A DNA stretch of 50,280 bases from NCBI GenBank assembly GCA_040219255.1, contig JAVJSW010000044.1, forward strand, positions 1-50,280. Reading direction: 5' to 3'. This document shows positions 8,047 through 49,748 of this stretch, one piece after another. How positions within the stretch are numbered: the first letter of the stretch is position 1; each line of letters begins with the position of its first letter. Source of the stretch: Sumerlaeia bacterium. GTDB taxonomy: Bacteria; Sumerlaeota; Sumerlaeia; SLMS01; JAHLLQ01. The notes beneath the pieces are model-generated. The model worked only from the letters and a program-made list of their open reading frames with translations, was not told the DNA's origin and did no database searches. Both the position numbers and the translations under genes were made by a program.

Positions 8047-8048
8047 CT

Positions 8049-8717
8049 ATGCATTTACATTTTGAATTCTTGGTCGAAGATCAGTCGGGAAAACTTCTTC
8101 TAGAGTCTTTGATACCACAAATCGTCGCGAAACCGAATACTTCTAATATTATCTCATATAAGGGTGTTGGCAATATTCCTACTGACCTTCGTGCGACTAC
8201 GGATCCGAGCAAGAGAATTCTTCTGAACAACTTGCCTCGCCTTCTTAAGGGTTACGGAAAAACCTATGCAAAAACTGGTGATTTCAAAGGAGTTGTCGTG
8301 ATCGTATGCGATTTGGATCGTCGTTGTTTCAAGGAATTCAGACAAGATATCAGAAACTTAATTCAAAATGTGCCGCAGGCGCCCGAAACGGTACTTTGTC
8401 TGGCGATCGAGGAAATGGAAGCATGGATTTTGGGGGATTTAGTGGCCATACTTCGGGTTTTCCCGAAAGCGAAACAGAACATTCTGAACACTTATGTGAA
8501 TGATTCGATATGCGGAACATGGGAGAAGCTGGCGGATGCCGTTTACAAGGGAGGTTCCGAAGCCTTAATGAAAGATGTGAGTTCTGCGAAGGGGCGTGAG
8601 AAATGCGCATGGGCCAAGAAAATAGGACCATTAATGAATGTGGATTCAAATCGTTCGCCCAGTTTTTGCTATTTTCGCGACAAGATTCGCAAAGTGCAAA
8701 GCCAATTGGGCGCCTGA
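8049..8717 (+). CDS. DUF4276-like (TOPRIM-like) protein
   Basis: FLVEDQS, VCDLD, EEMEAWILGD and NRSPSF motifs; starts 2 bp after the ATPase stop; AT-rich. Confidence 0.8.
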   Translation: MHLHFEFLVEDQSGKLLLESLIPQIVAKPNTSNIISYKGVGNIPTDLRATTDPSKRILLNNLPRLLKGYGKTYAKTGDFKGVVVIVCDLDRRCFKEFRQDIRNLIQNVPQAPETVLCLAIEEMEAWILGDLVAILRVFPKAKQNILNTYVNDSICGTWEKLADAVYKGGSEALMKDVSSAKGREKCAWAKKIGPLMNVDSNRSPSFCYFRDKIRKVQSQLGA

Positions 8718-24938: not shown

Positions 24939-24989
24939 GCGCCATCGGCTGGGAGCTTTCGAAAAGCTCTCCTCCAAAGGCTTGAACCG

Positions 24990-25028
24990 CGCCCCGGATT
25001 CCTTCAGGATTCCGGGGCGTTTTCGTTT
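24990..25028 (+). terminator. Probable intrinsic terminator after the secretin gene
   Basis: CGCCCCGGA...TCCGGGGCG stem followed by TTTTCGTTT. Confidence 0.7.
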
Positions 25029-25064
25029 ATCTTCACTCCCTCCCGATGAGAGACCCGCCGCCCC

Positions 25065-27827: not shown

Positions 27828-28021
27828 GGGATTGGGCGGTTGGCTCGGGGCGGTTCGGTCTTGGAGCGAGGTGGTGGCCGTCATCATCAGCGGGCGCGTC
27901 CTTTTCCGGGAGGAATGGGACGCACTGTACGCGTGGGGCTGGGGCCTGTCGCGTGCCTAACGGCGGTTAAATCCGTGGGTTTTAACGGTGTGGCCTGGGT
28001 GGGGGAGGCCGTCTGGCGGAA

Positions 28022-28614: not shown

Positions 28615-29466
28615 TCAGCCCGGTTTCTTGGGGGCGGGCATGGCTTCCAACACGTCGGTCATGTTGAAGATTTCGTTCTTCGAACCGGCGTTGAGTTTTT
28701 GGTGCAGGAATCGGACCGCGGTGAGGGCGCCTTCGGCGTAGACTTTGCGGCCGTGGACGCGGTGGCTGAGTTCGAGGCGGATGTCGGCGGTGTCGGAAGC
28801 GATTTCGTAGAAGTGGTAGGCGTGGCCGGAGATGTGCTCGAGGGGGACGTTGAGTTCCTGCTCCTGGACCTTGGCGTCGCGGATCATCTTGATTTTGTCG
28901 ACGGAGGCCGGGAGGCCAAGGGCGGCGAAGTCGGAGACGAGGGCTTTGGCGGTGCCGGAGGTGTCCTTCTTGCCGGATTGGTGGGATTCGAGGACGCCGA
29001 ACTGATAGCCGGCCATGGCGCCGGGGAAGCGGCCGGCGAGCCAGTGCATGGCGGACTGGAGCAGGACGATGGGGATTGCCATGTTGGGGGCGATGACCGC
29101 GGAGGTTCCGCTCTGGCGGACGAGTTCCAGCGCGCGGTCGCGGTCGTAGCCGGTGGTGCCGAGGACGAAGGGGATGCCTTTGCGGCTGTAGAACTCGACG
29201 TTGGGGAGGGCGGCGGCGGGTTCGGTGAAGTCGACGGCGATGCTGCCGGGGGGGATTTGGAGGCTGTCGCGATCTTGCGGGCGGACGAGGCGGACGGAGC
29301 GGCCATCGCCGAAGGCGAACGTTTCCGCTTCCATATTGGGGCCGGTGAGGGCGAAAGGGAGGAGGGTGAACGGGGAGTCGCTTTCTCGGTCGAGGGCGAG
29401 GCGGGCGACTTCGAGCGCCATGCGGCCTGGGAGTCCTGAAATGAGAAGCGGGATCGGGTTCGACAT
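28615..29466 (-). CDS. dapB: 4-hydroxy-tetrahydrodipicolinate reductase
   Basis: GLPGRM, DFT, GTTG, APNM and ESHQSGKKDTSGTA motifs. Confidence 0.9.
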   Translation of the reverse strand: MSNPIPLLISGLPGRMALEVARLALDRESDSPFTLLPFALTGPNMEAETFAFGDGRSVRLVRPQDRDSLQIPPGSIAVDFTEPAAALPNVEFYSRKGIPFVLGTTGYDRDRALELVRQSGTSAVIAPNMAIPIVLLQSAMHWLAGRFPGAMAGYQFGVLESHQSGKKDTSGTAKALVSDFAALGLPASVDKIKMIRDAKVQEQELNVPLEHISGHAYHFYEIASDTADIRLELSHRVHGRKVYAEGALTAVRFLHQKLNAGSKNEIFNMTDVLEAMPAPKKPG

Positions 29467-29507
29467 AAGGAAAGGAGGATGCCTTGGGCGGGAAAGGGGA
29501 TGCAAGA

Positions 29508-29547
29508 GAGAAGCCCCGCCGCGGTCAAAGGCCGAGCGGGGCTTCTC
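29508..29547 (-). terminator. Hairpin downstream of tRNA-Thr
   Basis: 12-bp inverted repeat GAGAAGCCCCGC / GCGGGGCTTCTC. Confidence 0.55.
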
Positions 29548-29559
29548 AGAAGAAGAAAG

Positions 29560-29635
29560 TGGAGCCGCTATGCAGATTCGAACTGCAGACCCCATCCTTA
29601 CCATGGATGTGCTCTACCAACTGAGCTATAGCGGC
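29560..29635 (-). tRNA. tRNA-Thr(GGT)
   Basis: GCCGCTA/TAGCGGC acceptor stem, CATCC/GGATG anticodon stem with GGT, TTCGAAT T-loop, encoded CCA. Confidence 0.96.
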
Positions 29636-29740
29636 TCGATGACCCCGGAAGAGACTTCGCACTCCCTCGCGGGCTGGAAAGTTAGTCCGAAGGAATACCC
29701 TCCGCGCAAGGGGAAATTGGGTGCGGCGGGGCGTTTTTTT

Positions 29741-32700
29741 TCAGCCGGCGGCGGGCGCGGCCAGTTGCTCGGCGACCTTTTTCGCCGTCTCGGCGTTCAA
29801 GGGCGCGCCGCCCATTTCGTGCATGATGATGAGCTGGTTGAAGGCGCCCTTGAGTTCGCGCACGTTGGACGTGATGGCTTCCGCCAGGATGTTGAGGGCG
29901 TCGTCGGGGACGTTCAAATCCTCGCGCTCCATGGCGACGCGGCGGAGGATGGCCATGCGCGTTTCGAGCTGGGGCGCCTGGATTTCCACGATGACGCCGG
30001 CGCCGAATCGCGACATGAGGCGTTTTTCGAGGTGGGCGATTTCCTTGGGCGGGCGGTCGCTGGTGATGACGATCTGGCGCTTGCTCTGGTAGAGCGTGTT
30101 GAAGATGTGGAAGAATTCTTCCTGGCTCGATTCCTTGCCCGCGAGGAGGTGGGCGTCGTCGAGGAGGAGCAGTTCGGCGGCTTTGTGTTTCTGGCGGAAC
30201 TGGATGACCTGGTTGTTCTGGATGGCGTCGATCAGCTCGCTGGTGAAGTCCTCGGCGTTGGTGTAGATGATTTTGATGCCGGGGTTTCCGTCGAGGACGT
30301 AATTCGCGATGGCGTGGAGGATGTGGGTTTTGCCCATGCCGACGTCGCTGTGGAGGAAGAGGGGGTTGTGTGGGGTGTTGCCGGGGGATTTGGCGACGGC
30401 CTGGGCGGTGGCCCAGGCGAAGCGGTTGTGGTCGCCGACGACGAAGTGGTCGAAGTCGTACTCCTTCATGACTTGGAGGGAGGCGGGGCGATGGTGCATG
30501 TCGGAGGAGCCGGCGCGTGGGATTTCGTCGGCCTTGAGTTCCATCAGGGGGGCCAGTGTGCGCCACTCGCGGAGGGCTTTCTGGACGTCGCCGGTTTCTT
30601 CGTAGATTTCGGCGCGCATACGGCGTGCGGGGATGTGGTCCTTGTCGATTTCCAGGGCGGCGCCGAGGGATTCGAGGGCGTCTTCGAACTCGCCGGCGGA
30701 GCGGTGGTAATCGGCCAGATTCATGACTTCTTCGAGGGCGTCGTGGTTCAGGCCGGCATCGTGGAGGGCTTCCGCCAGAGCCCGGCGCCGATCCACGTCG
30801 TCGGGGTTGAGGGCGGCGGCCTCGCGCCGCGCCGCCAGGGCGCCTTCCTTGTCGCCTTCTTTCTGGCGGATGTTGGCGATGGCGTCGAATTGCACCATGG
30901 CGGTGGGGATGTCGCTGTAGTTGTCGTCGAGGCAGACATCGATCAGCTTGCGGCGCAGGACGATGTTGTCGGGGTCGATGTTGACGGCTTCGCTGAGGGC
31001 CTTGGCGGCTTCGCGGAAGCGGCGCGATTCGGTGTGGGCGATGGCCATGTCGAGGAGGCGGCGGATGGTTTCGTCTTTGTGGACGCCGCCTTTCTTGGCC
31101 ATTTCGGCCATTTTGTGCTGGGCCAGGTCGTTTTCCGGATCGACGAGGAGGGCTTCGTGGAGCATGGCGTAGGCGCCGTCCGGTTCGCCCATCGCTTCTT
31201 TGCGTTCGGCGATGGAGAGGAGCTGCTTGGAGGCGTCGCGGTGGCGGTGGTGGCGACGGAGGAAATCGGCGTATTTCTGGCGGACTTCCATATCGTTGCC
31301 GTCGCGCTTGATGAGGCCGCGGAACAGATGGCCGGCTTCGTCGACCTCGTTGCGGCGGTCGTGGACGGCGATCAGTTCGTAGATTTGGTCGTCGGCGGCG
31401 GCGTGGCGCCCGGCGGCGCGGAGCAGAGCGGCGAGGCGCTTGTGGAGGCCCACGTCGTCGGGCTCGGATTTGAGCATCTGGCGCAGGATGCCCTCGGCGC
31501 GGGCGATGTCTTCGCTGGTCATGGCGCCGCTGCGGATCAGGTGATCGATGAGTTGCAGCGCGCCGGGGCGATCGTTGGCGTCGCGGCGGATTTCGGCCAG
31601 GGTGAGGCGGGTCGAGCGGGCTTCCGCCAGATGGTTGCGGCTTTCCTGCAAATCGGCCAGCAGTTCGAGGGCCTGTGGGTCTTTGGCCCCGGCGGCCACG
31701 CAGCGTTTCAGCAGTTCCTCCGCCCGTCCTTCCTGGTTGTCCTCGAGGAAGCGGCGGCAGGCGCGAAGGCGCTGCACCTGAGCGTCGTTCTGGCGGCCCA
31801 CGGCGTCCAGGGCGTCGCCGTATTCTTCGATGATCTGGGCGTCGTCGGGCGTTTGTTTGACGCACTTGGCCAGCCAGCGAACGCGGCCCTCTTTGTCGTT
31901 GGCGCCGAGGCTGATGTGGGCGTGGGCGCGCAGGGCCTTCATGGCCGAGGGGTCGGCTTCGAGAATATCGTCGAGAACGCTGTGGGCTTCGGCGAAGGCG
32001 CCGGCGCGGCGATGGGTTTCCGCCAGACGGTAGCGTGCTTCCGTGGAGAGATCCGGCCGATTCAGGCGTTGATAGGCGATCACGAGGCGTTCCAGGACCG
32101 CGGTGCTGTCGGGGCTGGCGCTGACGAGTTTGACGAGGGCTTCGACGGCGGGCCGGTTCGCGGCGGCGCCGAGCAGGTTGTCGACCAGACGCAGCGACGC
32201 ATTGAGTGTTTCGGGTGTCAGGCCTTGCAGGATGCGGATTTCCACGTAGCGCAGGGCCACCGGTCCGCTGGAGGGTTCGACCTGGGCGGCCTGCTCCAGC
32301 GCGTCGCAGGCGGCCTGGAGATCGCCGCGGTCTTCCGCGTCGCGGGCTTCCGCCACCAATTCGCGGGCCGCCTTGCCCGACTGGCCCGTCGTCACAAGGA
32401 GTTGAGTAATCATCGGCCTCACGTCAATAGCGGCCGAGGAGGCGTTCGCCTCCACCTGGCGGTAGGCCCAGAGGGCTTCCTGCAAGTCGCCCGCTTCCTC
32501 CGCCGCGTCGGCGAGAAGCATGAGGTGCTGGGCGGCGGTTTCCGCTTCCTCGCGCTTGAGGTGGACTTCGGCCAGTTTGCGGCGCCAGGCGCGGTTGGAC
32601 GGGTCGGCCTCCAATTCGCCGGTCAGCAGATCGATGGCGGCCTGATCGTTGCCGAAGCCCAATTCCGCATCCGCCAGACGGGTTACCAGGAGAGCCGCGG

Positions 32701-33229
32701 CGCCATCCTCGCCGCCTTTCTTCTTGAGGCGCAGCAGCACCCGGAGCGCGCGGACATGATTGGGGTCGAAGGAGAGGACCTCTTCGAGCTTGGCCACGAT
32801 GGCTTTGGCCTTTGGCCCCAGGGGGCCTGTTTCCGTGTCCATCTGGCCCACGAAAGCTTCCGCCGCGTCGACGTGCTGATCGAGTTTCTGAAGGTCTTCG
32901 GGCAGGGCGATTTCGATACCGAACTCATCGCAGAGCGACTTGACCGCTTGATCGAAGGTGACGCCGCGGGAGCCGGCGAAGAGATCGATGAGGTTGCCGC
33001 CCGCCTGGCCTTTGCACCCCGGTTCCGTGCATTGGTAGGTTTTCGTTTCCTCGTCGAGCATCATGCTGCGCGATTCTTCTTCTTCGCCATGGAGGGGACA
33101 GGAGCATCGGATTTTGCCGCCGCCGCGCTGCATCGACCCCGGGAAGTAGTCGATGAACTCGAGGACATCGAGGACGTCGAGGCCGTCGAGCACCTGCCGG
33201 ATTACGGTTTCGGAGTGTTTCGTCTTCAT
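29741..33229 (-). CDS. CHC2 zinc finger - TPR-like repeats - DnaA-like AAA+ fusion protein
   Basis: N-terminal CPLH...C..PGC; many helical repeats; C-terminal FDHFVVGDHNRFA, NPLFL.SDVGMGKTH, LLDD, QEEFFHIFNTL, SDRPP, RLMSRF and NVRELKGA; ends without DnaA domain IV. Confidence 0.9.
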   Translation of the reverse strand: MKTKHSETVIRQVLDGLDVLDVLEFIDYFPGSMQRGGGKIRCSCPLHGEEEESRSMMLDEETKTYQCTEPGCKGQAGGNLIDLFAGSRGVTFDQAVKSLCDEFGIEIALPEDLQKLDQHVDAAEAFVGQMDTETGPLGPKAKAIVAKLEEVLSFDPNHVRALRVLLRLKKKGGEDGAAALLVTRLADAELGFGNDQAAIDLLTGELEADPSNRAWRRKLAEVHLKREEAETAAQHLMLLADAAEEAGDLQEALWAYRQVEANASSAAIDVRPMITQLLVTTGQSGKAARELVAEARDAEDRGDLQAACDALEQAAQVEPSSGPVALRYVEIRILQGLTPETLNASLRLVDNLLGAAANRPAVEALVKLVSASPDSTAVLERLVIAYQRLNRPDLSTEARYRLAETHRRAGAFAEAHSVLDDILEADPSAMKALRAHAHISLGANDKEGRVRWLAKCVKQTPDDAQIIEEYGDALDAVGRQNDAQVQRLRACRRFLEDNQEGRAEELLKRCVAAGAKDPQALELLADLQESRNHLAEARSTRLTLAEIRRDANDRPGALQLIDHLIRSGAMTSEDIARAEGILRQMLKSEPDDVGLHKRLAALLRAAGRHAAADDQIYELIAVHDRRNEVDEAGHLFRGLIKRDGNDMEVRQKYADFLRRHHRHRDASKQLLSIAERKEAMGEPDGAYAMLHEALLVDPENDLAQHKMAEMAKKGGVHKDETIRRLLDMAIAHTESRRFREAAKALSEAVNIDPDNIVLRRKLIDVCLDDNYSDIPTAMVQFDAIANIRQKEGDKEGALAARREAAALNPDDVDRRRALAEALHDAGLNHDALEEVMNLADYHRSAGEFEDALESLGAALEIDKDHIPARRMRAEIYEETGDVQKALREWRTLAPLMELKADEIPRAGSSDMHHRPASLQVMKEYDFDHFVVGDHNRFAWATAQAVAKSPGNTPHNPLFLHSDVGMGKTHILHAIANYVLDGNPGIKIIYTNAEDFTSELIDAIQNNQVIQFRQKHKAAELLLLDDAHLLAGKESSQEEFFHIFNTLYQSKRQIVITSDRPPKEIAHLEKRLMSRFGAGVIVEIQAPQLETRMAILRRVAMEREDLNVPDDALNILAEAITSNVRELKGAFNQLIIMHEMGGAPLNAETAKKVAEQLAAPAAG

Positions 33230-33366
33230 GGGGGGCGCGCTTTCGATCGGAAAGGGGGAACGGATTGGGGGCTGGCGAGCCGGGATGGGCGAGGTTGCGG
33301 GCCGGAGTCCGTCCGGCCGGGGGGTGCGGGAAAAACCGCGGAATTGAAACCCGAACGGCGGGGAGT

Positions 33367-33645
33367 TTACAAGACAAAGCCCTTCTTCTTCGCCAGAGTC
33401 TTCTTTCCTTCCAACACCATGCGGCGGTAATCGCCCCCGGTGCGCAGGATCTCCGTCTTGTGCTTGGCCAGCATTTCCTCGGCCTGTTTTTCCAGTTCGT
33501 CTTCTTCGCGCAGATTGTTCTGTAACGCGCGGCGCACGGCCGCCACCACCGCGTCCGCGTCGCGCAGGTCCACGTGGGGGCTATCCTTGAGCGCCCGCAA
33601 AGCGAGCACTGACAGGGAGTTCATTCGATTGGGAGAGAGACGCAT
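33367..33645 (-). CDS. DUF507-like protein
   Basis: MRLS N-terminus, E.ELEKQA core and KKTLAKKKGFVL C-terminus. Confidence 0.75.
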   Translation of the reverse strand: MRLSPNRMNSLSVLALRALKDSPHVDLRDADAVVAAVRRALQNNLREEDELEKQAEEMLAKHKTEILRTGGDYRRMVLEGKKTLAKKKGFVL

Positions 33646-40702: not shown

Positions 40703-41581
40703 GAGCGTGTCCGAAGTCCCAAAATCACCCCGCCAGCCCCCTCAGCAGCCTCTGGATCGACGCCACGTCGATCCACGCCTCGCTCGACGAAGGCAAGTGC
40801 TCGTAGTCTTTCGCCAGCCTTCGGCACCGGCTCAGCCACGCGATCGTGCGCTCCACAACCCACCGCTTCGCCGCCACCACAAACCCTTTTACGCCCTCCT
40901 TGCGTTTGACGATTTCAAGTTCCAGACCCACTTTTTCCGCCTCGCGCCGCAGCCTCTCGCCCCCGTAGGCGCTGTCGCCGTAAACCTTCCAAAGCCGCTC
41001 CCAGTCCCGATTTGCGGCCTGCGCGAAGAGCTCCACCGCCGCCACGCTATCGTGCTCGCGGGCGCTGCCGACAAGGCGCCCAATCACGCGCCCTGACATG
41101 TCGACGAGGATGTGACGCTTGCGGCCTTTGACCTTTTTGCCGCCGTCGAACCCCCTCAAAGGCCCCCTTTTTCTGTCGTCTTCACGGACTGTGAATCGAT
41201 GACGGCGACGGACGGGCTCGGCTTTTTCGCCTGCGTTTTGCGGCTCTGGCGGACCAGGCAGTGCTCGATTTCGCGCCAGACCCCTTCTTTTGTCCACTCT
41301 CGGAAGTAATGGTGGACGGTTTTCCATTTCGGCAGGTCGTGGGGCAGGAGGCGCCAAGGGCATCCGGCGCGGAGCTGGTACAGGATGGCGTTCACGATTT
41401 CACGGTAAGAGACTTGACGTTGCTCGGCTTGCGGGACATTCTCTCGCAGCACGGGCCAAAGAACGGCCCACTGCGCGTCGGTCAAGTCGGTGTCGTAACG
41501 GGAGCGGTCGGGAGCGTGAGAAGACATGGCGGAAGGTTGCCAAACCCAATGGCCTCAGTCAAAGGAAGTTCGGACACGCTC
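40703..41581 (-). mobile_element. IS5-family insertion sequence (IS1031/IS427-like), 879 bp
   Basis: 13-bp perfect terminal IRs GAGCGTGTCCGAA; TTA target duplication at 40700-40702 and 41582-41584. Confidence 0.95.
40725..41527 (-). CDS. IS5 transposase split over two frames
   Basis: ORF A has YDTDLTDAQW, GCPWRLLPHD and IDSQSVKT; ORF B has GFDGGKKVKGRKRH, GDSAY and RWVVERT; frames join at GAAAAAGGGGG near 41162-41172. Confidence 0.9.
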
Positions 41582-41607: not shown

Positions 41608-42708
41608 TCACTTAATAGGTACCCAATACCCGCTTGGGTGCAATGCTTCAGTTTTTCCTGTGATCCGGTGGGTCCTGACAAACGTCGAACTCTTGAACAC
41701 TTCGACCTCTCTGTAGCTATACAGCGTTGGCCACGCAATCCATGCAAAACACAAAATGCCTCCCAAAACCAAAACGCAGACAATCCACGTACGTCTGTCC
41801 GACTTGCGAAACTGGGCGGCAATCAGGGTGGCGACACAGAAAAGGACATATAATACCGCGATTGCCCCCAGGGGCAATAAAAAATACTTTGCGTAGTACT
41901 CTTCTGAGTCTTCCAAGGGCTTGAAGTAAAAGGATGCTTTTCGCCCCGCAATGAGCTGTCGAACTCTTGGTTTGTATGCATTTCTTTCGATAATCCTGAG
42001 GAAAGCGGAGTCTTTATTGAGCGCATGATAAAAATATTCCCTACCGTACTCCTCCGTAAAATCCAAAGGAATTTCAAAAAGAGTTTCTCCTTCTACCAAG
42101 ATGGCAGATTTGCCAAAAATCTCAGTGTTTGCAGTTTCAAAAAAATACTTTGTAAAATAGTTGTCCACAATCAACCCAACGGGCTTTCCCATCCAGTACT
42201 CGCCTTGCCCGAATAAGTCAAATCTTGGTAGTATAAAGAATTGATGCGAGTCTGTCATAACGGGAGTTACTAATAAATGTGTTTTTGTCGTTGAGTCGTC
42301 CTCTAAATAAAATGAACGAACCTTGGAGACTGTTCCGATTATTAGTACATATCTTTCTTGAGTCAATATATCTATCCGTCCTGGTTGCGAATGCGCCTCA
42401 TAGGCCATGCCTTTGAGAATTTGATTGTTTTTGTCCAGATCGACTCCATACTTGGCGATTATGTCCCTAAATCTCTGCATTTGCGCATTGAACTTTGAAA
42501 TCTCGGCATCTGCGTGCATCTGAGCCAAGTCATTCTCTGCCTCTCTGTTGCTGTTGATTGTCGCGATAACGTGCCAGACAAGTAGTGCCAAGATGAACAG
42601 GTACCATTTTTGACGACTTTTCGGTTCACTTGGCATGGCGGAGGAGTCCTCCCTAACTTCTGTCGTGGTGGTGTTTTGATGGGCGAGCATGGGAGAGGAC
42701 TCAGACAA
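41608..42708 (-). CDS. AT-rich hypothetical membrane protein
   Basis: 366-aa ORF with one N-terminal and two C-terminal TM segments; AT-rich codon usage. Confidence 0.65.
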   Translation of the reverse strand: MSESSPMLAHQNTTTTEVREDSSAMPSEPKSRQKWYLFILALLVWHVIATINSNREAENDLAQMHADAEISKFNAQMQRFRDIIAKYGVDLDKNNQILKGMAYEAHSQPGRIDILTQERYVLIIGTVSKVRSFYLEDDSTTKTHLLVTPVMTDSHQFFILPRFDLFGQGEYWMGKPVGLIVDNYFTKYFFETANTEIFGKSAILVEGETLFEIPLDFTEEYGREYFYHALNKDSAFLRIIERNAYKPRVRQLIAGRKASFYFKPLEDSEEYYAKYFLLPLGAIAVLYVLFCVATLIAAQFRKSDRRTWIVCVLVLGGILCFAWIAWPTLYSYREVEVFKSSTFVRTHRITGKTEALHPSGYWVPIK

Positions 42709-42949
42709 TAGGGTCAGTTAATGCGTTACGGCTGGACTCGAACGTTGGGGCTTCAAGATTCGCACAACGAACCCCGCCGGTCCCCCACTTTCTCTTTGCA
42801 ACGTCCGTAAATTCAAGCACTCGCGCGCGCGTGAGCGGGTCGTACGAATAGTACAGGAGCTTTAGCAGCCTCATCAGATACATGCTCCCAACCTCTTTGG
42901 CCGCGAACCAACGAATCATGTCGAGCATCTTCGTGTGATTGTATGACAT
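42701..42949 (-). pseudogene. Possible truncated Panacea/SocA (DUF4065)-like antitoxin N-terminus
   Basis: AAGGAGGAG RBS; KMLDMIRWFA...RLLKLLYYS resembles the KLLY helix of DUF4065 proteins, then similarity is lost. Confidence 0.4.
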
Positions 42950-43322
42950 TGCTATAACTCCTTCCTTGGTGTGTAAGCGCTGATTTCTAAGTCATGCGCA
43001 CCGCTTCACACAGGTTGTGCCCTTACTGCTACCGCCGTCAGGATAGGGCAATCCAAGTGTGACACACAGGAGTTCGCATGACAAGCACAAGATGAGAGGA
43101 CTGACGGAGAAATACGAAGGAAAACCAAAGAAAAGCCTGGGTGCATGGCGAGGAAAAATCTAAGCGCCGAGGGGGAACGCGGAGGTGGAGCCCAGCGTCT
43201 TTGTGGGCAGGTGCGAGGAAGAGAGGCCATCCGCCTCCAGCCATCACGACCTGCGCTCAGAACCCTCATTTTCTCCGTCTTTCAGGAGGAAGGGCTTCTG
43301 TGTCTAACTCTTGCGAATTCAA

Positions 43323-43399
43323 TGGCGATCCAGGAGGGACTCGAACCCCCGACCGTCGGAGTAGAAATCCGATGCTCTATCCAGCTGAGCTACTGGACC
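43323..43399 (-). tRNA. tRNA-Arg(TCT)
   Basis: GGTCCAG/CTGGATC acceptor stem, TCGGA/TCCGA anticodon stem with TCT, GTTCGAG T-loop, encoded CCA. Confidence 0.95.
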
Positions 43400-43560
43400 G
43401 CGGCGCGAAGCGGGTCGTAGTGAAGCCCGCGGGGCGCGGGCAGGCAACTGGAAATGTGGGAGGATTGGCGTCAGGCGAGTTACGCTTCGCCAAATTTTCC
43501 CCTTGCGCCCGGGCGATAGGAGGGCGAAAGGTGGGGCAATCCTTCTGAGTCCCATGTCCC

Positions 43561-45009
43561 ATGATTCGCCGCATCGTCCTGGAAAACTACATGGCCCACG
43601 AGCGCACCGTCATTGAACCGGCGGAGGGTTTGACGGTGCTCATCGGGCCGAACAATTGCGGCAAGTCGGCGGTGATCTCCGCCTTGGAAACGCTCTGCCG
43701 GGGCACGGACGGGGACTTCATGGTGCGCCATGGGGCGCGGTCCGCGTCGGTTACCGTCGAGACGTCCGACGGCCATGTCGTGACTTGGCGCCGCCAGGGC
43801 AAGTCGTCTTATTACGACGTGGACGGGCACGATCTCGGAACGACCGGCAAGAACAAGAAAGAAAAGCTGGAAAAGGTCCACGGGGCGCTGCGCCTCGATC
43901 TGGTGCAGGTCAACGAAAAGGACGCCGTGGATGTGCATCTGGCGCTGCAGAAGCAGCCGATTTTCCTGCTGAGCGACACGGGATCGCAGGCGGCGGGGTT
44001 TTTCGCCAGTTCGTCGGATGCGTCGAAGCTGCTGGAAATGCAGGGCAAGCACCGCAGCAAGGTGCGCGAGGCGAAAGGTCGGCGGCGGACGCTGGAGGAG
44101 GAGCGGCTGAGGGTGGCGGGGCAGGCGGAAGCGCTGGCGCCGCTGGATTCGCTGCGGCCGAGGCTGGAGGCGGCGCGAGACGAGCACGGGGCGATGGTGC
44201 GCGCGCGCGAGCGAGAGGCGGCGCTCGAGGTCTTGATTGGCCGGCTGGCTTTGGCGGCGGCCCGCGTGGCGGCGCTGGAGCGCGAAGGCGCGGTCCTGCG
44301 CCGCACCCAGCCCCCGCCGGAGTTGGCGCCGACGGCGCCGCTGGAGGAATTGCTGGCCGAACTGGAGACCTGGACCCAGCGCCGGAGGGCGGCGGAGGCC
44401 CGGCAGAAAGGCCTGGAGCCCTTGGCCTTGCCCCCGATCCTGGCCGACGACAGGCCTCTGGCGGGGCTGTGCGAACGCCTGGGTAGGGCGCGGCGGCGCC
44501 TGACCGGCTGCGAGGGCCTCGCCACCGCCTGCCGACCCCTGCGAGACCCGCCCGCGATCGCGGAGACGGTGTCGCTGGAACGTCACCTTGCCGCGCGCCG
44601 GCGCCTGACTGACCTGGAAACGCGGCGCGCGGGCGATGCGCAGGCGCTCGCGCCCCTGTCCGCGCCGCCCGTGCTCGGCGACGAAAGCCGCCTGGCGGCG
44701 GTCATTCTGGGCCTCCAACGCGCCGCCGCGCGCGCCGAGGCGCAGGAGGCGAAACAGCGCAGAATGGCTCATCTGCCCGGGCCTCCGGAACTCGCCGAGA
44801 CGCGGCCCCTGGAAGACTCGATCCGCCTTCTCGCGAAGGCCCAGGCGGCAGAGAAAAAAGCCGCCGCCGCGAAGGAAACGGCCAACGCCGCCGTAGGCGA
44901 AGCCGAAGCCGCCATCCGCCAATGGGCCACCGCGAACCCGACTTGTCCGACCTGCGGCGGCCCGGTCACGCCCGAACACCTGCTGCGGCACGGAGGGCCC
45001 GCCTCATGA
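43561..45009 (+). CDS. SbcC/Rad50-like N-terminal half (Walker A, coiled coil, zinc hook)
   Basis: MIRRIVLENYMAH, GPNNCGKS, probable Q-loop LQKQPIF and terminal CPTCG; no Walker B. Confidence 0.88.
   Translation: MIRRIVLENYMAHERTVIEPAEGLTVLIGPNNCGKSAVISALETLCRGTDGDFMVRHGARSASVTVETSDGHVVTWRRQGKSSYYDVDGHDLGTTGKNKKEKLEKVHGALRLDLVQVNEKDAVDVHLALQKQPIFLLSDTGSQAAGFFASSSDASKLLEMQGKHRSKVREAKGRRRTLEEERLRVAGQAEALAPLDSLRPRLEAARDEHGAMVRAREREAALEVLIGRLALAAARVAALEREGAVLRRTQPPPELAPTAPLEELLAELETWTQRRRAAEARQKGLEPLALPPILADDRPLAGLCERLGRARRRLTGCEGLATACRPLRDPPAIAETVSLERHLAARRRLTDLETRRAGDAQALAPLSAPPVLGDESRLAAVILGLQRAAARAEAQEAKQRRMAHLPGPPELAETRPLEDSIRLLAKAQAAEKKAAAAKETANAAVGEAEAAIRQWATANPTCPTCGGPVTPEHLLRHGGPAS
44314..44898 (+). 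repeat. Five 39-aa Pro-Pro helical repeats within SbcC-N
   Basis: Pro-Pro codons start at 44314, 44431, 44548, 44665 and 44782, exactly 117 bp apart. Confidence 0.85.
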
Positions 45010-45953
45010 CGCGCAGTTATTCCGGGCTGCTCGCTATCGGCGATCCGCATCTGGCCAGCCGCACCCCCGGTTTCCGCAAGGACGAGTACCCGGCGGCGAT
45101 TCTGGGGAAGCTCCGCTGGGCGCTCGATCACGCCGAGGAGGAAGGCCTCCTGCCGGTGCTGCTGGGCGACCTGTTCCATTACCCGCGCGACAACGCGAAT
45201 TGGCTTCTGACCGAGGTGATGCAGCTCTTCGCGGGCCGCGAGATCATCGGTATCACCGGCAATCACGATTGCAGCGAAAGCGATCTGGGGCCGGACGATT
45301 CGTTGGCGGTGGTGGTGGCCGCCGGTTGCCTGCGCCTGATCGACCGCGACGGGCCTTGGCTCGGCGAAATCGGCGGCGTCCCGATGGTGATCGGCGGCAC
45401 CGGCTGGAGCGATTTCAACCTGCCCAAGGGGTACGAACCGCACCCGCCCGGCGGCCTGGTTTTCTGGCTGACACACCACAACATCTGCTTCGGCGGTTGC
45501 GAGGAATTCCCTATGGAACCGCGGTCGATGCCGGGAATCGACGTGGTGATCAACGGCCACATCCACCGGCGTCTGGACGATATTCAGCGGGGCGAGACGG
45601 CGTGGCTCAATCCCGGCAACATCGCCCGCGTGGCTCGCGCCGAGGCGGTGCGCGACGCCAGGCCGGCGGTTCTGCGCATCGACATCGGCCCCGGCGCCCA
45701 ATGGAGCGCCCGCCACATCGAAGTCCCCTTCGCGCCCTTCGATGACGTTTTCCACCCCGGGCTGGTGGGCGAAGCCGAGACGTTTCAGACGTCCGCCTTT
45801 GTCCAGGGGCTCGAATCGCTGACCGCCTTCAAGACCCAGGGCGGCGCCGGATTGATGAAGTTCCTGAAGGACAACACCGGCGAAATGCCCTCGAGCGTCG
45901 CCACCGAAATTTTCGCCCTCGCGCGGGAGGTTTGCACCGATGAAGACATCTAA
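45006..45953 (+). CDS. Mre11/SbcD-like metallophosphoesterase nuclease
   Basis: GDPH, LGDLFH, GNHD, THH, GHIH and NPG motifs; ATGA overlap with the upstream gene. Confidence 0.9.
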   Translation: MTRSYSGLLAIGDPHLASRTPGFRKDEYPAAILGKLRWALDHAEEEGLLPVLLGDLFHYPRDNANWLLTEVMQLFAGREIIGITGNHDCSESDLGPDDSLAVVVAAGCLRLIDRDGPWLGEIGGVPMVIGGTGWSDFNLPKGYEPHPPGGLVFWLTHHNICFGGCEEFPMEPRSMPGIDVVINGHIHRRLDDIQRGETAWLNPGNIARVARAEAVRDARPAVLRIDIGPGAQWSARHIEVPFAPFDDVFHPGLVGEAETFQTSAFVQGLESLTAFKTQGGAGLMKFLKDNTGEMPSSVATEIFALAREVCTDEDI

Positions 45954-46257
45954 CAATGCGGGTCAGCAGGACATCGAAGTTCTCCGCCAACGCTACGACA
46001 GCCTGCGCGAGCAGCGCATCACGGCCGACAACAACCTGAAGCACGCGCGCGAGCAGCTCGAGCAGCTCTGCGCGGAAGCGCGCAAGGAATTCGGCACCGA
46101 CGACCTGAAAACGCTGGAGGCCAAACTGGCCGCCATGCGCGAGGACAACGAGAAAAAACGCGCCGCCTATCAGGAGCATCTCGACGGCATTGAGCGCGAT
46201 CTGGCCGCCCTGGAAACCGGCGAAGGCGCCTCCGCCGCCGAGGACGGGGCGCCGTGA
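45940..46257 (+). CDS. Small coiled-coil protein
   Basis: 105-aa heptad-rich ORF with a central FGTDD turn; overlaps both neighbours; GGAGG RBS. Confidence 0.8.
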   Translation: MKTSNNAGQQDIEVLRQRYDSLREQRITADNNLKHAREQLEQLCAEARKEFGTDDLKTLEAKLAAMREDNEKKRAAYQEHLDGIERDLAALETGEGASAAEDGAP

Positions 46258-46931
46258 CGCTCCCCGCGCCGACCTCTCCGGAATCTCTGGGCCGCCGCTT
46301 CGAACGTCTCGCCGGGCGTCGCGATTCGCTGCGCCGGGCCCTCGCGGAAAAGGATCTTCAACTCGCCGAACTCGACGCCTACCTGGCCCTGGAGAAGCCG
46401 GTGGAGGATGCCCTGGAGCACCTGAGCCAGACGATGTTTTCCTCGATCACCCGCGTCATCGAGGAGAAGCTCACCCTCGCCCTGCAGGAAGTTCTCGAAC
46501 AATCCATCGCCCTGCGCGTCACGTCGGATTACAAGTTCGGCAAGGCCTCCATCGGTTTTCATCTGGAACGGGACGGCCAGAAGGAAGACATCCTGCGCGG
46601 CACCGGCGGTTCGGTGACAAACGTGTTGTCGGTCGGCTTGCGGCTGTTCGCCCTCAAAACCCTCGACGAGAAGGAGCACCGGCGCTTTCTCGTCCTCGAC
46701 GAGCAAGACGCCTGGCTGCGCCCCGACATCGTTCCCCGCTTCGTCAAGATCATCCACGAAGCGTCGCGGGGCCTGGGTTTCCAGGTCCTCATGATCAGCC
46801 ACCACGACGACGCCGTGTTCAGCCAGTACGCCGACAAGATCTATCGCTTCACGCCCCGGTCCGCGGGGGGCGTGTCGGTCAAGGAGGTGCGCCGCGAGGC
46901 TCGGAATCCGGACGAAGAGGCCCCATCCTGA
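46254..46931 (+). CDS. SbcC/Rad50-like C-terminal half (signature, Walker B, H-loop)
   Basis: N-terminal helix, TGGS signature variant, FLVLDEQD, MISHH and ADKIY; no Walker A. Confidence 0.88.
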   Translation: MTLPAPTSPESLGRRFERLAGRRDSLRRALAEKDLQLAELDAYLALEKPVEDALEHLSQTMFSSITRVIEEKLTLALQEVLEQSIALRVTSDYKFGKASIGFHLERDGQKEDILRGTGGSVTNVLSVGLRLFALKTLDEKEHRRFLVLDEQDAWLRPDIVPRFVKIIHEASRGLGFQVLMISHHDDAVFSQYADKIYRFTPRSAGGVSVKEVRREARNPDEEAPS

Positions 46932-46946
46932 GGGAGCCGGCGGCGG

Positions 46947-49748
46947 TTAGTAGCGCGTTACGTCCTCGCTGCCGAGACTCTCGTCGATGGGCACTTCGCC
47001 CACCGTGGCGGGTGGCGCGATGGCCATCAGGAGGTCGCGGCGCAACGATTCGGCGGGCCGGGAATTGTCTTCGATTCGATTGTTTTCCCAGTCGGTAATG
47101 TAAAACACGTCAATGATCTGGTAGGCTTCCGTGGCGATCAGCGCGAGGTGGACGTTGATGCGGTGACGGTCGAGAACGCTCAGGATGTCGTAGAGCAGGC
47201 CGGCCCGGTCGGGCGCCCGCACCTCGAGAACCGTCGCCGATTCGAAGTCCGCTTCGTTGTTGAACACCACGCTGGGCGGGTGGAGGTTGAGGCGGGCGGC
47301 GGAGATGGGCTGGGGGCGCGAGAGGGGGCCCGGGTTGTTCTCCCACTTCGGCTCGCGTTCGCCGCGCAGGACCTGGTTGAGCCGGGTGCGCAGCCGGTCC
47401 AGCGCGCTCGAATCGCGCGGGGGCTGGCGGTCCTGGCCTTGGATCTGAAAGACGTCGACGCAGAGGCCGTTGCGGCTGGTGTAAATCTGCGCCGAGAGAA
47501 TGTTGTAGCCTCGGCTGGCGAGGGCTCCGCAAATGTGCCGGAACAATCCCGGCGCATCGAGCGACAGGCACGTCAGCATCGCGTAGTTGCAGCCTTCCAC
47601 CGGCTCCAGCACCCAGTTCACCGGCTCCGCCTCGCACACTTTCTGCGCCATTCGCATGTGCATGGCGACCTGATGGGGCGGGGTGAAGCGGCGATAGCGC
47701 TCGGGCAGGGCGCGGAGAAACTCCTCGACCGACGGCCGGGGCGCCGAGGGATCGTCGTCACAGGGCGAGGGTTCGGCCGAATCCAGGTTCGCCTCCGCCT
47801 CCTTGCCCAGATCTTCCAGCAGGGGCAGCGCTTCCTCGACGCGCGTCACGAGATAGCCGGTGTTCACCATGGGGCGGTGGAGCCGGTCCTCGCGGCCCAG
47901 AAGGGCGTCCATGGTACGCTCGTAGAGGCTCGACAGAAGCGAGGCGCGCCAATCGTTCCAGGAGTCCTCGCTGACCGCCCGCAGATCGCAGCAGGTCAGC
48001 ACGTAAAGCATGCGCATCATTTCCGGATCGGCGATGTCGCGCGCCATTTCCTTGGGAACCTTGGGGTCTTCCGGATTCCGCCGCAGCGCCGCGTGCGAGA
48101 GTTTGTGGTGGTTCATCACCAGATCGTGGAGCACCTCGCAGGGCCGGCGCTTCATGCCCAGCCGTTCCGCCGCGCGCTGCACCAGGTGGGCGCTGCGCAT
48201 CACATGGCCGCGCCCTTCGCCCTTGCCTACATCGTGATAGAGCAGGGCGAAGGCCAGCACGTCCCAGCGCAGAATCTCGCCCGCCACCGTGCCCACGTGG
48301 GTGCTGGACATGGGCGAATCGGGGTCGAGCAATTCCGCCGCGCACTCCACCGCGCGCAGCAGGTGCTCGTCCACGGTGAACTGATGGTAATAGTCGATAC
48401 GCGGCAGATTGCGAACCAGCGCGAATTCCGGCAGATAGGTTTCCAGAAAGCGGCATTCGTGCATCCGCCTCAGGATGCGGGGCCCATGATCCACGTTGCC
48501 CAGAATCGCCAGAAAACGGTCGCGGTTGGCGGGCGACCGGCGGAAGGCGTCGTCGACCCCGGGCAGGGTGCGCTCCACCAGGTCGAGGGTGAAATCGTCG
48601 AACAGGTAGCCATGGACGGCGCCGGCGTGAAAGGCGCGCAGGGCCCAGGCGGGGTCGCGGATCGTTTTCTCCGCGTCCTTTGGCAGCACGAAGATCTGAT
48701 TTTCGCGGGTCCAGAATTCGCCCTCGATCCGGCTGCGGCGCAGGCGCTTATTGACAGCGGTGGAGCTGGTCGATTCCTCGCCGAAGCCCAGCCGCATCAC
48801 GAGGCGCTCGAGATAGCGATCGATCGTCTGGGCGTGATCGTAATAGGCCCGCATCAGGCGCTCTTCCGGCAGCATGGCGCCGGTTTTCCGGGTGATATCG
48901 TTGCCGAAACCCATCTGCGAGGCGATTTTGATCTGCCGCTCAAAGGTCAGTTGATCGGTCTTGCGGCCTTCGAGCAGGTGGAGCGCGTTGCGCAATTGGA
49001 TCAGAAAGGCGTGGGACCGGCGCAGCGCCCGCTCCTCGCGCGGCGTCAGCAGGCCCTGGGCCGTCAAGGTCGAGAGATGCCACTCGCCAAAGCGTAGAAA
49101 CGTCAGCCAGCACGCCACATGCAGATCGCGCAGGCCGCCGCGCGCTTCCTTGATGTTGGGCTCGAGCAGGAAGATCGTGTCGGAATTCTTCGAGCGCCGG
49201 ATGCGGGCGCGCTTCAGGATGTCGCGCCCGATGGCGTCGCGGTGCTTGTCGCGCGCCACACCCCGGAAATGCTCCGTGAAATCGCTGAACAGCTTCGGAT
49301 CGCCCCAGATCGCCCGCGCCCCGATGATCGAGGTCGCGAAATCGAAATCTTCGTCCAGGATAGCGAACGCTTCCTTCTGCGTTTTCAGCGCGTATCCCAG
49401 GTCCACCCGCAAATTCCAGAGCGGGTACAAGTAGGCTTTCACAAAGGCCTGCTGCGTTTCGGTCGGCTCCTCGCGGCAGAGGAACATCAGGTCGATGTCG
49501 CTTTGCAGATTCAGCTCGCGCCGGCCGAAACCGCCCGTCGCCACGATTACCATGTTCTTTTCGGCGCCCGGGAATTGCGGCGCCATCTCCTCGGCCAGCG
49601 TCTGCAGGATGCGGTCCCAGTCCTCGCTGTAAACCCGCACCACATCCAGGCCGGGGGCGTGCGCATGGGTATCCGTCAAGCGGGCGCGGGCTTCGTCCAG
49701 CAGGGCCTTCAGCCGTTCGGTGGTGGTATCTGGTGCAACGTCGGTCAT
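46947..49748 (-). CDS. glnD: [Protein-PII] uridylyltransferase
   Basis: GGFGRREL..QSDIDL, EPNIKE..GGLRD, YHQFTVDEH, HDVGKG and two ACT domains. Confidence 0.96.
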   Translation of the reverse strand: MTDVAPDTTTERLKALLDEARARLTDTHAHAPGLDVVRVYSEDWDRILQTLAEEMAPQFPGAEKNMVIVATGGFGRRELNLQSDIDLMFLCREEPTETQQAFVKAYLYPLWNLRVDLGYALKTQKEAFAILDEDFDFATSIIGARAIWGDPKLFSDFTEHFRGVARDKHRDAIGRDILKRARIRRSKNSDTIFLLEPNIKEARGGLRDLHVACWLTFLRFGEWHLSTLTAQGLLTPREERALRRSHAFLIQLRNALHLLEGRKTDQLTFERQIKIASQMGFGNDITRKTGAMLPEERLMRAYYDHAQTIDRYLERLVMRLGFGEESTSSTAVNKRLRRSRIEGEFWTRENQIFVLPKDAEKTIRDPAWALRAFHAGAVHGYLFDDFTLDLVERTLPGVDDAFRRSPANRDRFLAILGNVDHGPRILRRMHECRFLETYLPEFALVRNLPRIDYYHQFTVDEHLLRAVECAAELLDPDSPMSSTHVGTVAGEILRWDVLAFALLYHDVGKGEGRGHVMRSAHLVQRAAERLGMKRRPCEVLHDLVMNHHKLSHAALRRNPEDPKVPKEMARDIADPEMMRMLYVLTCCDLRAVSEDSWNDWRASLLSSLYERTMDALLGREDRLHRPMVNTGYLVTRVEEALPLLEDLGKEAEANLDSAEPSPCDDDPSAPRPSVEEFLRALPERYRRFTPPHQVAMHMRMAQKVCEAEPVNWVLEPVEGCNYAMLTCLSLDAPGLFRHICGALASRGYNILSAQIYTSRNGLCVDVFQIQGQDRQPPRDSSALDRLRTRLNQVLRGEREPKWENNPGPLSRPQPISAARLNLHPPSVVFNNEADFESATVLEVRAPDRAGLLYDILSVLDRHRINVHLALIATEAYQIIDVFYITDWENNRIEDNSRPAESLRRDLLMAIAPPATVGEVPIDESLGSEDVTRY

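Follow-up and report, generated by a model that had tools for sequence, protein, structure and literature searches.

A four-gene locus of a Sumerlaeia bacterium predicted to encode an Mre11-Rad50-type nuclease with a two-piece ATPase head and a terminal hook

Introduction

In Rad50 and the SMC proteins (for structural maintenance of chromosomes), the two parts of the ATPase head lie apart in the sequence and are rejoined by a coiled coil that folds back on itself; how the length and rigidity of this arm, and its hook, relay the changes of ATP state is debated. What, then, is made by a locus in which the two halves of such a head are encoded by separate genes, with a nuclease gene and a small fourth gene between them? 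The locus analysed here lies at positions 43561-46931 of a stretch of 50,280 nucleotides (nt) from a Sumerlaeia bacterium (assembly GCA_040219255.1, contig JAVJSW010000044.1, positions 1 to 50,280, forward strand), hereafter the window. A first reading of the DNA letters (the original prediction) had taken it for a split Rad50/SbcC-Mre11/SbcD operon. We find that its four genes, A to D, form a conserved set with permuted relatives. At the molecular level they very likely specify an Mre11-Rad50-type nuclease with a two-piece head, a terminal hook, an arm made of repeats and a fourth small subunit. Taken together with its role, the product is probably an ATP-driven nuclease of unusual build for DNA ends or hairpins, with an accessory processing role.

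Results

Four overlapping genes carry the motifs of one ATPase head

The genes and the motifs of the two head proteins are as follows (aa, amino acids; ORF, open reading frame).

43561..45009, + strand: gene A, ORF of 482 aa; Rad50/SMC-type head N-lobe, long helix, 39-aa repeats and C-terminal CxxC
43645..43668, + strand: Walker A motif GPNNCGKS, A residues 29-36; G29, P30, N31, N32, G34, K35 and S36 invariant in 25 sequences
43948..43950, + strand: Q-loop glutamine Q130 of A, in HLALQKQPIFLL; Q130, K131, P133 and F135 invariant in 25 sequences
44017..44304, + strand: long helix out of the head, A residues 153-248; helical in the AlphaFold2 (AF2) model, with a predicted local distance difference test (pLDDT) mostly of 75-94 over the block
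44311..44895, + strand: five tandem 39-residue repeats (PPxLxDxxPLExL and a helix), A residues ~251-445
44944..44958, + strand: zinc-hook-like motif CPTCG, A residues 462-466, 17 residues from the stop; C462, C465 and G466 invariant
45006..45953, + strand: gene B, 315 aa; Mre11/SbcD-type metallophosphoesterase with C-terminal helices
45940..46257, + strand: gene C, ORF of 105 aa; small helical (two-helix) protein with a conserved YGTDD-type turn
46254..46931, + strand: gene D, 225 aa, GTG start; N-terminal helix (residues ~10-95), then the C-lobe of an ATP-binding cassette (ABC) head
46599..46613, + strand: signature-like GTGGS, D residues 116-120, family consensus GQGGS; G116, G118, G119 and S120 invariant and Q117 nearly so in 50 sequences
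46689..46709, + strand: Walker B and D-loop LVLDEQD, D residues 146-152; L148, D149, E150 and D152 invariant in 50 sequences
46794..46805, + strand: H-loop ISHH, D residues 181-184; I181, S182, H183 and H184 invariant in 50 sequences

In the ORF list, the four plus-strand genes overlap one another and fill 43561-46931, in the order that the original prediction had given and with every motif it named in place. The frame of B is open from 44922, and the ATG at 45006, which matches the starts of the homologues, gives the 315-aa protein. Read directly, the junctions are an ATGA between A and B (the stop TGA of A, 45007-45009, overlaps the ATG of B at 45006), a 14-nt overlap between B and C, and a 4-nt overlap, GTGA, between C and D; overlaps of this type are typical of translational coupling. 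The cassette is present as a single copy in its genome.

The first ~165 residues of A matched the Pfam families AAA_15 (37.9 bits) and AAA_23 (38.6 bits) above their cut-offs. Among 8000 candidates scored, 319 homologues of A were found at E ≤ 0.001; those among the 120 matches listed are 363-692 aa long and carry the source labels 'exonuclease SbcC' or 'AAA family ATPase'. In the structure comparison, the head of the A model best matched Rad50 and SMC heads, with 1f2u at the top (E 6.4e-6). Protein D exhibited a sub-threshold match to the C-terminal part of SMC_N (17 bits), and its Walker B glutamate is intact in the family. The head motifs of Rad50/SbcC, i.e. Walker A, Q-loop, signature, Walker B, D-loop and H-loop, are all present, but on two chains.

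A head in two chains exists as a laboratory construct, the P. furiosus Rad50cd (1f2t/1f2u), in which the N-terminal head segment is a chain of its own of ~149 residues; this chain is the best structural match of the A head and also a sequence match. When the N- and C-terminal segments are co-expressed, they reportedly form an active head. The Rad50cd split is man-made and its coiled coil was removed, whereas the cassette is split by nature and keeps its arm on the N-terminal piece.

The split four-gene set is conserved

A single-sequence search of genome contigs returned no relatives, and a profile built from alignment A1 was then used. Scanning one genome per species with this profile gave 285 relatives, from which 80 loci were kept. 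The four genes stand in separate frames and in the order A-B-C-D in 68 of the 80 loci, mostly from Planctomycetota, which bears out the gene order as a conserved unit. Across the loci, B measures 312-352, C 91-120, D 202-251 and A 399-754 aa; the exceptions are a B of only 238 aa and three D frames of 101-156 aa, one of which lies at a locus end. The proteins of these loci share 30-43% (A), 37-61% (B), 32-53% (C) and 46-62% (D) identity with those of the window, and the catalytic positions of head and nuclease show little or no variation in 25-50 homologues. Among the flanking genes, no family is seen in more than 9 of the 80 loci.

These data decide whether the four ORFs could stem from a one-chain sbcC that is broken and holds an inserted sbcD, be it as a pseudogene or through an error of assembly or sequencing. 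Canonical Rad50/SbcC is a single polypeptide, and the genome that holds the window is a draft of 83 contigs, as such a reading would have it. Against it, four separate frames of uniform size are seen again in 68 of 80 loci that are independent and stem from many assemblies, the identities of 30-62% are not those of copies of one error, the catalytic residues are invariant and the junctions are overlaps of the coupling type. The artefact reading was therefore rejected on the grounds of recurrence, uniform sizes and divergence, and its probability is practically nil.

Ten of the remaining 12 loci end at a contig edge. The other two, both from Pirellulaceae (L060 and L078), have no D though the DNA continues: A, B and C are kept (C is truncated in L060) and are followed by 3.5 kb and 1.25 kb, respectively, without a detectable D. 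These may be decaying copies.

The arm of A carries an array of repeats and ends in a hook-like motif

The original prediction described the part of A beyond the head as a coil. The AF2 model (mean pLDDT 73.7, predicted template modelling score, pTM, 0.30) does contain a helix of ~95 residues, but what follows is no plain coiled coil; it consists of five shorter helices with proline linkers, which correspond to the five 39-residue repeats. The proline pairs are located at A residues 251, 291, 330, 369 and 408, spaced by 40, 39, 39 and 39 residues. As no 117-nt period was detected in the DNA of the repeat region, the repeats are old.

In the 68 complete loci, the length of A is shifted from that of the window in whole repeats: by -2 in 4 loci, -1 in 28, 0 in 18 and +1 in 8, with longer arms of about +2 in 6 (four at +1.5), +4 in 1, +5 in 2 and +7 in 1. 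The number of repeats ranges from 3 to 12 in the loci examined. Over the same 68 loci, C (standard deviation 6 aa) and D (standard deviation 7 aa) are constant in length while A varies. In a folded-back coiled coil, the lengths of both strands must change jointly; since C and D stay constant when A changes by 39-aa steps, the arm is probably not a two-way coiled coil. A two-chain neck would be limited to the first ~85-95 residues, formed by A 153-248 with D ~10-95, and the repeats would be a self-contained array.

At the end of the arm, the CxxC is invariant, and positions 402-472 of profile A1 match the P. furiosus Rad50 hook (6zff, E 3.7e-5; 1l8d, E 1.5e-3). The putative terminal hook first recognised from its CPTCG motif is retained, with the likeness to Rad50 seen at the profile level.

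B has the motifs and fold of Mre11, and C may bind the ATPase

Protein B presents all five phosphoesterase motifs (GDPH, GDLF, GNHD, HH and GHIH) with the spacing of Mre11, and its residues D13, H15, D55, N86, H87, H157, H158, H185 and H187 are invariant in 49 sequences. The Pfam family Metallophos is matched with 30.5 bits for a cut-off of 21.5. In a Foldseek search of the PDB with the B model (AF2, pLDDT 88.9), the best 50 matches listed are all Mre11/SbcD, with E of 2e-12 to 5e-9 and template modelling (TM) scores of 0.49-0.62. Motifs and fold agree in making B an Mre11-type nuclease, as had been proposed; an activity on DNA ends or hairpins is predicted from them.

For C, Pfam gave only sub-threshold coiled-coil matches and no known family, and its Protein Atlas neighbours are unnamed clusters of ~100-115 aa, one of them auto-labelled DUF4164. 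C was found by tblastn in 72 of the 80 split-family loci, 68 of which have all four genes. In a predicted complex of A, D and C, made from our own alignments, C scored 0.49, compared to 0.01 for the best of three controls and 0.01 for the control in which A was replaced; the runs agreed in at least 85% of contacts and the partner pLDDT was at least 73. Of 80 solved complexes, 58 reach the mark used for this score, as do 2 of 110 mismatched pairs; at 0.60 or below, only 7 of the 80 solved complexes do so, but both mismatched pairs. These values weakly suggest that C binds the ATPase. The small protein had been suggested to supply part of the returning coil: an association with the ATPase, weakly suggested here, would be in line with the prediction, but the coil role is doubtful, because the lengths of C and D are fixed while the arm of A varies by 39-aa repeats.

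A sister family carries the same modules in permuted order

A search of 1.84 billion representatives with the D profile gave 2873 matches at E ≤ 1e-3, of which 1023 reached E ≤ 1e-10 and 138 reached E ≤ 1e-30. They fall in tiers, with stand-alone D proteins of ~220 aa followed by many proteins of 600-700 aa that carry the D part at their N-terminus (residues ~5-215). In the latter, Pfam places the C-terminal motifs of SMC_N at ~125-200 and the start of AAA_23/AAA_15, with the Walker A, at ~225-280; these proteins end with GGxCPxCG...H, preceded by proline-punctuated repeats. In 72 of 80 metagenome loci, the hidden Markov models (HMMs) of D and A matched one ORF, the other 8 having no complete ORF, and the fused D·A chain has a median length of 654 aa (72 loci). 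Of the 72 loci, 57 have a homologue of C directly upstream and 59 one of B directly downstream of the fused gene; 49 have both. The split and the fused sets are homologous in all four modules (HMM E 1e-29 to 1e-61). A RefSeq example is the trio on plasmid pBSY19_1 of Bosea sp. RAC05, annotated as a hypothetical protein of 87 aa, an 'AAA family ATPase' of 637 aa and a 'metallophosphoesterase'.

Judged by the order of its motifs, the fused chain is a circular permutation, with the C-lobe first, then the N-lobe, the arm and the hook, and the arrangement C-[DA]-B is, read in the same way, a cyclic permutation of the order A-B-C-D of the window. The fusion of D and A in a larger sister family indicates that A and D build a single head, with B and C as its constant partners. 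This is the support for head assembly in trans, as foreseen by the original prediction, which included neither the permuted relatives, new here, nor the repeat nature of the arm.

In a maximum likelihood tree of 98 B proteins, the split and the fused sets stand on opposite sides of one branch (Shimodaira-Hasegawa-like approximate likelihood ratio test, SH-aLRT, 90-91), so that one rearrangement suffices. The only outgroup, the SbcD-like protein of the same genome, sits on a branch of 6.99 substitutions per site and gave no direction between split and fused.

The two families are alike in the terminal hook, the kind of repeat, the small protein and the nuclease. They differ in that D and A are separate in the window, and in that the split form is found mainly in Planctomycetota, the fused one on megaplasmids and in many metagenomes. 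It is present on 21 large non-mobilisable (megaplasmid) records, with hosts that include Bosea, Rhizobium, Methylorubrum, Variovorax, Pseudomonas, Vibrio, Aeromonas and Alteromonas. In the metagenome loci, the genes flanking the fused family include RecJ-like (11), ATP-dependent ligase (8), SLT (8) and TraR-type (8) genes.

Both families provide natural variants without a return strand, in which the head halves are separate or fused in the opposite order and the hook is terminal. Since the 39-residue units of the arm can be counted, a small four-protein bacterial system makes its length and the connectivity of the head open to direct test, and A-B-C-D versus C-DA-B offers a clean case of circular permutation at the level of an operon. 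With 1023 representative clusters that lack a curated model, many trios and quartets labelled 'AAA family ATPase', 'metallophosphoesterase' and 'hypothetical' become annotatable.

An enlarged form of the permuted system was seen in three metagenome loci (L123, L125 and L126), each with a fused D·A chain of 966 aa. In L123 and L126 the B homologue has 815-818 aa with its phosphoesterase at ~330-583, and no B was found in L125; the extra parts of these proteins are not explained by Pfam, NCBIfam or PADLOC.

Relation to known systems

The cassette shares with Mre11-Rad50/SbcCD the ABC head motifs, a helical arm with a CxxC end, a partner with Mre11 motifs and adjacent, coupled genes. It differs in several respects. 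The head comes from two polypeptides, whose genes enclose those of the nuclease and the small fourth protein; the hook sits at the C-terminal end of a chain, 17 residues before the stop of A, and not at the apex of an antiparallel coiled coil; the arm consists mostly of 39-aa repeats, 3 to 12 in number; the signature is GQGGS/GTGGS; and an obligatory extra subunit of 105 aa is present. In addition, A stays below the curated thresholds of Rad50/SbcC, and B below that of SbcD. The cassette is set apart from the Rad50/SbcC family because the build is not the single folded-back chain and because these thresholds are not reached.

Other non-canonical arrangements of the same two activities are the Mre11/Rad50 fusion proteins, e.g. 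Mimivirus R555, which occur sporadically in viruses, plasmids and bacteria according to PMC3175470, where phage T4 gp46/gp47 are also mentioned. These fusions join the nuclease to a Rad50 of normal order, whereas here the ATPase is split or permuted and the nuclease is separate.

Among the immune systems, LmuB of Lamassu is, according to the review PMC10586767, a Rad50 relative of ~650 aa with a short arm and often a CPxCG-type hook, and the Walker B of the Vibrio Lamassu carries an E-to-Q change. The cassette exhibits a weak HMM likeness to LmuB in the N-lobe and arm: the PADLOC models of LmuB gave partial matches of 23-44 bits on the split and fused families. LmuB is one chain of normal order with LmuA effectors and LmuC as partners; the partner in the cassette is an Mre11-type nuclease, and the Walker B glutamate is retained.

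More broadly, PADLOC 2.0.0 returned partial matches, at the Walker A/B regions only, to AriA (37.7 bits), LmuB (27.5 bits), mad3 (36.5 bits) and GajA, with A and D at no more than 38 bits, and 0 matches for B; the fused family likewise gave only partial PADLOC and NCBIfam matches. No model of Pfam, NCBIfam or PADLOC covers the split or the fused family, and the cassette matches no known PADLOC system, as the original prediction would have it. Lamassu was rejected, the LmuB models reaching 23.6-27.5 bits over the N-terminal ~100 residues of A, with no match to LmuA or LmuC and 0 for B. Wadjet was rejected as well, since C gave only coiled-coil noise against JetC (E 0.005-0.04, 9.6-13.1 bits), with no JetA, JetB or JetD. 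In the same way, OLD, Gabija, PARIS and Septu were discarded: the matches lie at A residues 1-50 to 1-95 (no more than 38 bits) or at the Walker B of D, and there is no Toprim or HNH partner.

In the literature covered, with supplements and the ABC-ATPase classification of Krishnan et al. 2020 outside its scope, we found no paper on a Rad50/SbcC, split or permuted, that is paired with an Mre11-type protein. The layout is conserved and, in that literature, undescribed, the nearest papers being those on Mre11-Rad50 fusions (PMC3175470) and on SMC-like immunity (PMC10586767).

Proposed mechanism and role

We propose that A gives the N-lobe with Walker A and Q-loop, and D the C-lobe with the signature-like GTGGS, Walker B, D-loop and H-loop, of one joint head. 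The N-terminal helix of D (~85 residues) would pair with the ~95-residue helix of A in a short coiled-coil neck, beyond which A alone would continue as the array of 39-residue helical repeats. From the motif and the profile likeness we infer that the terminal CxxC shares a zinc ion with a second A chain, in the fashion of the Rad50 hook. B would be a Mn-dependent Mre11-type nuclease whose C-terminal helices probably bind to the neck in the way that Mre11 docks on Rad50, and C, the fourth obligatory small helical subunit, probably binds A, as the complex prediction faintly suggests. By analogy with SbcCD and Mre11-Rad50, the binding of ATP would close two A·D heads on DNA, and hydrolysis would present an end or hairpin to a B dimer.

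As to the role, an accessory processing of DNA ends or hairpins, in repair, recombination or the removal of palindromes, has somewhat better than an even chance in our judgement and is slightly favoured over immunity. It is supported by the neighbourhood. Of 111 neighbouring genes, 90 were scanned; the 21 dropped comprise 17 from loci syntenic with included ones and 4 opposite-strand ORFs overlapping the core. Thirty-five were Pfam-negative, and among the 55 others 46-47 are housekeeping, metabolic or regulatory genes, the remaining 8-9 resembling genes of defence or of mobile elements (Cas3-like, Cas1-Cas4, AAA_21, Uma2, a serine recombinase, two nucleotidyltransferases, UvrD-PD-(D/E)XK and possibly DUF6602). 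The G+C content at third codon positions (GC3) of genes A-D is 0.81-0.84, equal to that of the core genes of the window. The RecJ-like and ligase genes beside the fused relatives are consistent with this role, as is a 485-kb uncultured phage in which a split-type A homologue (455 aa, with the hook) is followed 2.8 kb downstream by a B homologue; the stretch of this phage that was fetched gave no match to D or C.

The relation to canonical SbcD points in the same direction. Among 201 Planctomycetota genomes, SbcD is found over its cut-off in 30 and at E ≤ 1e-10 in 72; at the latter level it is matched in none of the 6 cassette carriers and in 72 of the 195 others (binomial p about 0.07, with kinship ignored), and three carriers checked directly have no SbcD over the cut-off. 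From these small numbers, this is a hint that the cassette and SbcD are complementary. Does the genome of the window hold a canonical sbcCD? A one-chain SbcCD-like pair is present on contig C41, composed of a 359-aa metallophosphoesterase and an 822-aa protein (SbcC_Walker_B 30.4 bits), but it lies in a prophage-like setting.

This pair belongs to a run of minus-strand genes (contig C41, 42-8199, locus L095) for a Gp3-like recombination directionality factor (503 aa), the SbcD-like (359 aa) and the SbcC-like protein (822 aa), which also holds a DUF1064 protein (169 aa) and a RecD2-type helicase (753 aa). The run looks like a prophage- or element-like DNA-processing module, and it contains the only normal-order SbcCD-like pair of the genome.

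Several results weigh against the reading of the cassette as an Mre11-Rad50-type nuclease of accessory processing. On the molecular side, the best NCBIfam scores of A are 25-37 bits for cut-offs of 300-1000. In its own genome, TIGR00618 (sbcc) matched only C41 (38 bits, cut-off 478.5) and TIGR00619 (sbcd) only C38 (21.3 bits), the window genes and window B, respectively, being unreported at E ≤ 0.001. The window A sequence alone matched Rad50 hook structures only at E 0.46-0.5, the A model with its pTM of 0.30 does not fix the packing of the repeats, and the signature of D is atypical, with T/Q in place of the Ser of ABC ATPases. On the side of the role, the cassette is rare and patchy, which speaks against housekeeping: with A as query, it was found in 0 of 10 genomes of the host family; with the D profile, in 2 of 75 genomes of the host phylum (G000 and G024); and in 6 of 201 evenly sampled Planctomycetota, a count that includes the central genome of the sample (14 best candidates per genome scored). 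Its occurrence in at least 8 phyla with unrelated flanks is the pattern of mobile accessory systems, including defence systems; the megaplasmid records of the fused relatives do not suggest housekeeping either; and the window copy sits at a tRNA gene with an insertion sequence (IS) element and low-GC ORFs nearby. The search of RNA runs listed none with the locus, and one DNA metagenome run carries 0.23 of its words.

The G024 locus (L073, Candidatus Sumerlaeia) is the nearest relative of the window, with a B of 61% identity, and the other carriers include Bacillota, Anaerolineales, Thermodesulfobacteriota, Bipolaricaulia, Fimbriimonadaceae and metagenome-assembled genomes of Proteobacteria; Thalassoglobus neptunius KOR42 (locus L041) is a cultured one. 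This patchy, low-frequency, cross-phylum distribution of a self-contained cassette with unrelated flanks is what an immune system would show, in which A·D·C would sense foreign ends, hairpins or replication intermediates, as the Rad50-like LmuB of Lamassu and the SMC protein of Wadjet do, and B would destroy the invader or abort the cell. A tRNA-adjacent site with an IS element and low-GC ORFs, the Cas3-like, Cas1-Cas4, AAA_21, Uma2 and nucleotidyltransferase neighbours, the repeat number that differs between loci, and the weak likeness to LmuB (27.5 bits with A and as many as 43.8 bits with a fused relative), itself a Rad50 relative often with a CPxCG hook according to PMC10586767, would all fit. 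Nevertheless, neither the four proteins nor the fused family are covered by a PADLOC 2.0.0 model, and only 8-9 of the 55 Pfam-matched neighbours are defence- or mobile-like. The family keeps its Walker B glutamate, in contrast to the E-to-Q change given for the Vibrio Lamassu in that review, the effector is a standard Mre11-type nuclease and no typical abortive-infection toxin, and the relatives inside a giant phage and on megaplasmids are in elements that a defence would target. We regard immunity as possible but rather unlikely; if it held, the cassette would be a Rad50-Mre11-based addition to the SMC-like defences.

The same mobile relatives raise a further alternative, namely that the cassette is a module of megaplasmid or large-phage origin that processes the element's own replication or recombination intermediates, in the manner of T4 gp46/gp47, and that was stranded or domesticated here. 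The 21 plasmid records of the fused family, its RecJ-like, ATP-dependent ligase, SLT and TraR-type flanks (8-11 loci each), the A-like and B-like genes of the 485-kb phage, and PHROGs families of matching length, phrog_16465 (491 positions) and phrog_15167 (211 positions), are in its favour. But the flanks of the split family are chromosomal housekeeping genes, with no integrase or element genes recurring, and GC3 equals that of the host core genes. Moreover, the fused protein P0274 found nothing at E ≤ 1e-10 in a collection of 50,697 phage records, in which A and D gave only weak partial matches. Such an origin is improbable.

Two phage loci were observed in the course of this comparison. In the uncultured phage LR745208.1 (444630-456908, locus L178), the A homologue lies amid ORFs that resemble, by eye, RecA, thymidylate synthase and a Cas4-like PD-(D/E)XK protein. 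In the Microbacterium phage Magritte (OR553905.1, locus L179), gene 155 at 93.8 kb is A-like in its N-lobe and gene 2 at 0.5 kb, annotated 'exonuclease', is D-like; as far as the sequences tell, the head is naturally split here too, its halves lying far apart at opposite ends of a 133-kb linear record.

A bolder picture, to which we give slightly less credence than to plain immunity and which is thus unlikely, is a 'one-way-arm' Rad50 in which the ring is closed by a separate C-lobe protein, together with the 105-aa subunit and an adjustable repeat arm with a zinc hook. With its permuted megaplasmid and phage relatives, it would form a large, mobile and unrecognised SMC-like branch that senses and cuts DNA ends in conflicts between genomes and mobile DNA, and would not serve housekeeping repair. 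Our preferred reading is still the Mre11-Rad50-type nuclease with an accessory role in processing ends or hairpins.

Surroundings of the locus

The right flank is formed by a converging glnD, which ends 15 nt past D. On the left, the original prediction had placed a tRNA-Arg next to the cassette; ARAGORN confirmed it, and low-GC ORFs without a Pfam match and then a two-ORF IS4/IS5-type transposase lie beyond it. The other features of the window are the following.

43323..43399, - strand: tRNA-Arg(TCT), the left border of the cassette
41608-42949, - strand: two low-GC ORFs of 366 aa and 82 aa, between the IS element and the tRNA-Arg (region GC 0.45-0.56, Pfam-negative)
40725-41527, - strand: IS4/IS5-type transposase in overlapping frames, with DUF4096 at 41156-41527 and a DDE domain at 40725-41363
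21627-27887, - strand, and 29201-33430, + strand: two very large ORFs (2086 aa and 1409 aa), for which Pfam gave no family at E ≤ 0.001
6760-8717: low-GC island (GC 0.47-0.50, compared to ~0.64 around) with a 428-aa AAA_21/AAA_15 ATPase followed by a 222-aa DUF4276 protein

A scan of 43300-47100 for promoters and terminators gave no signal exceeding shuffles. The comparison of sites anchored on GlnD, the C-terminal part of which is present in 24 of 24 relatives searched, demonstrated neither an insertion nor an empty site, and no tRNA was found within ~1.5 kb downstream in the 11 loci scanned out of 24 fetched. The other genes of the window presented no synteny with three genomes of the same family.

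The two ORFs at 41608-42949 look like island cargo at a tRNA gene, and the two frames of the transposase at 40725-41527 would correspond either to programmed frameshifting or to a broken copy. The pair at 6760-8717 looks like a horizontally acquired ATPase module, of a kind known from defence or toxin-antitoxin contexts.

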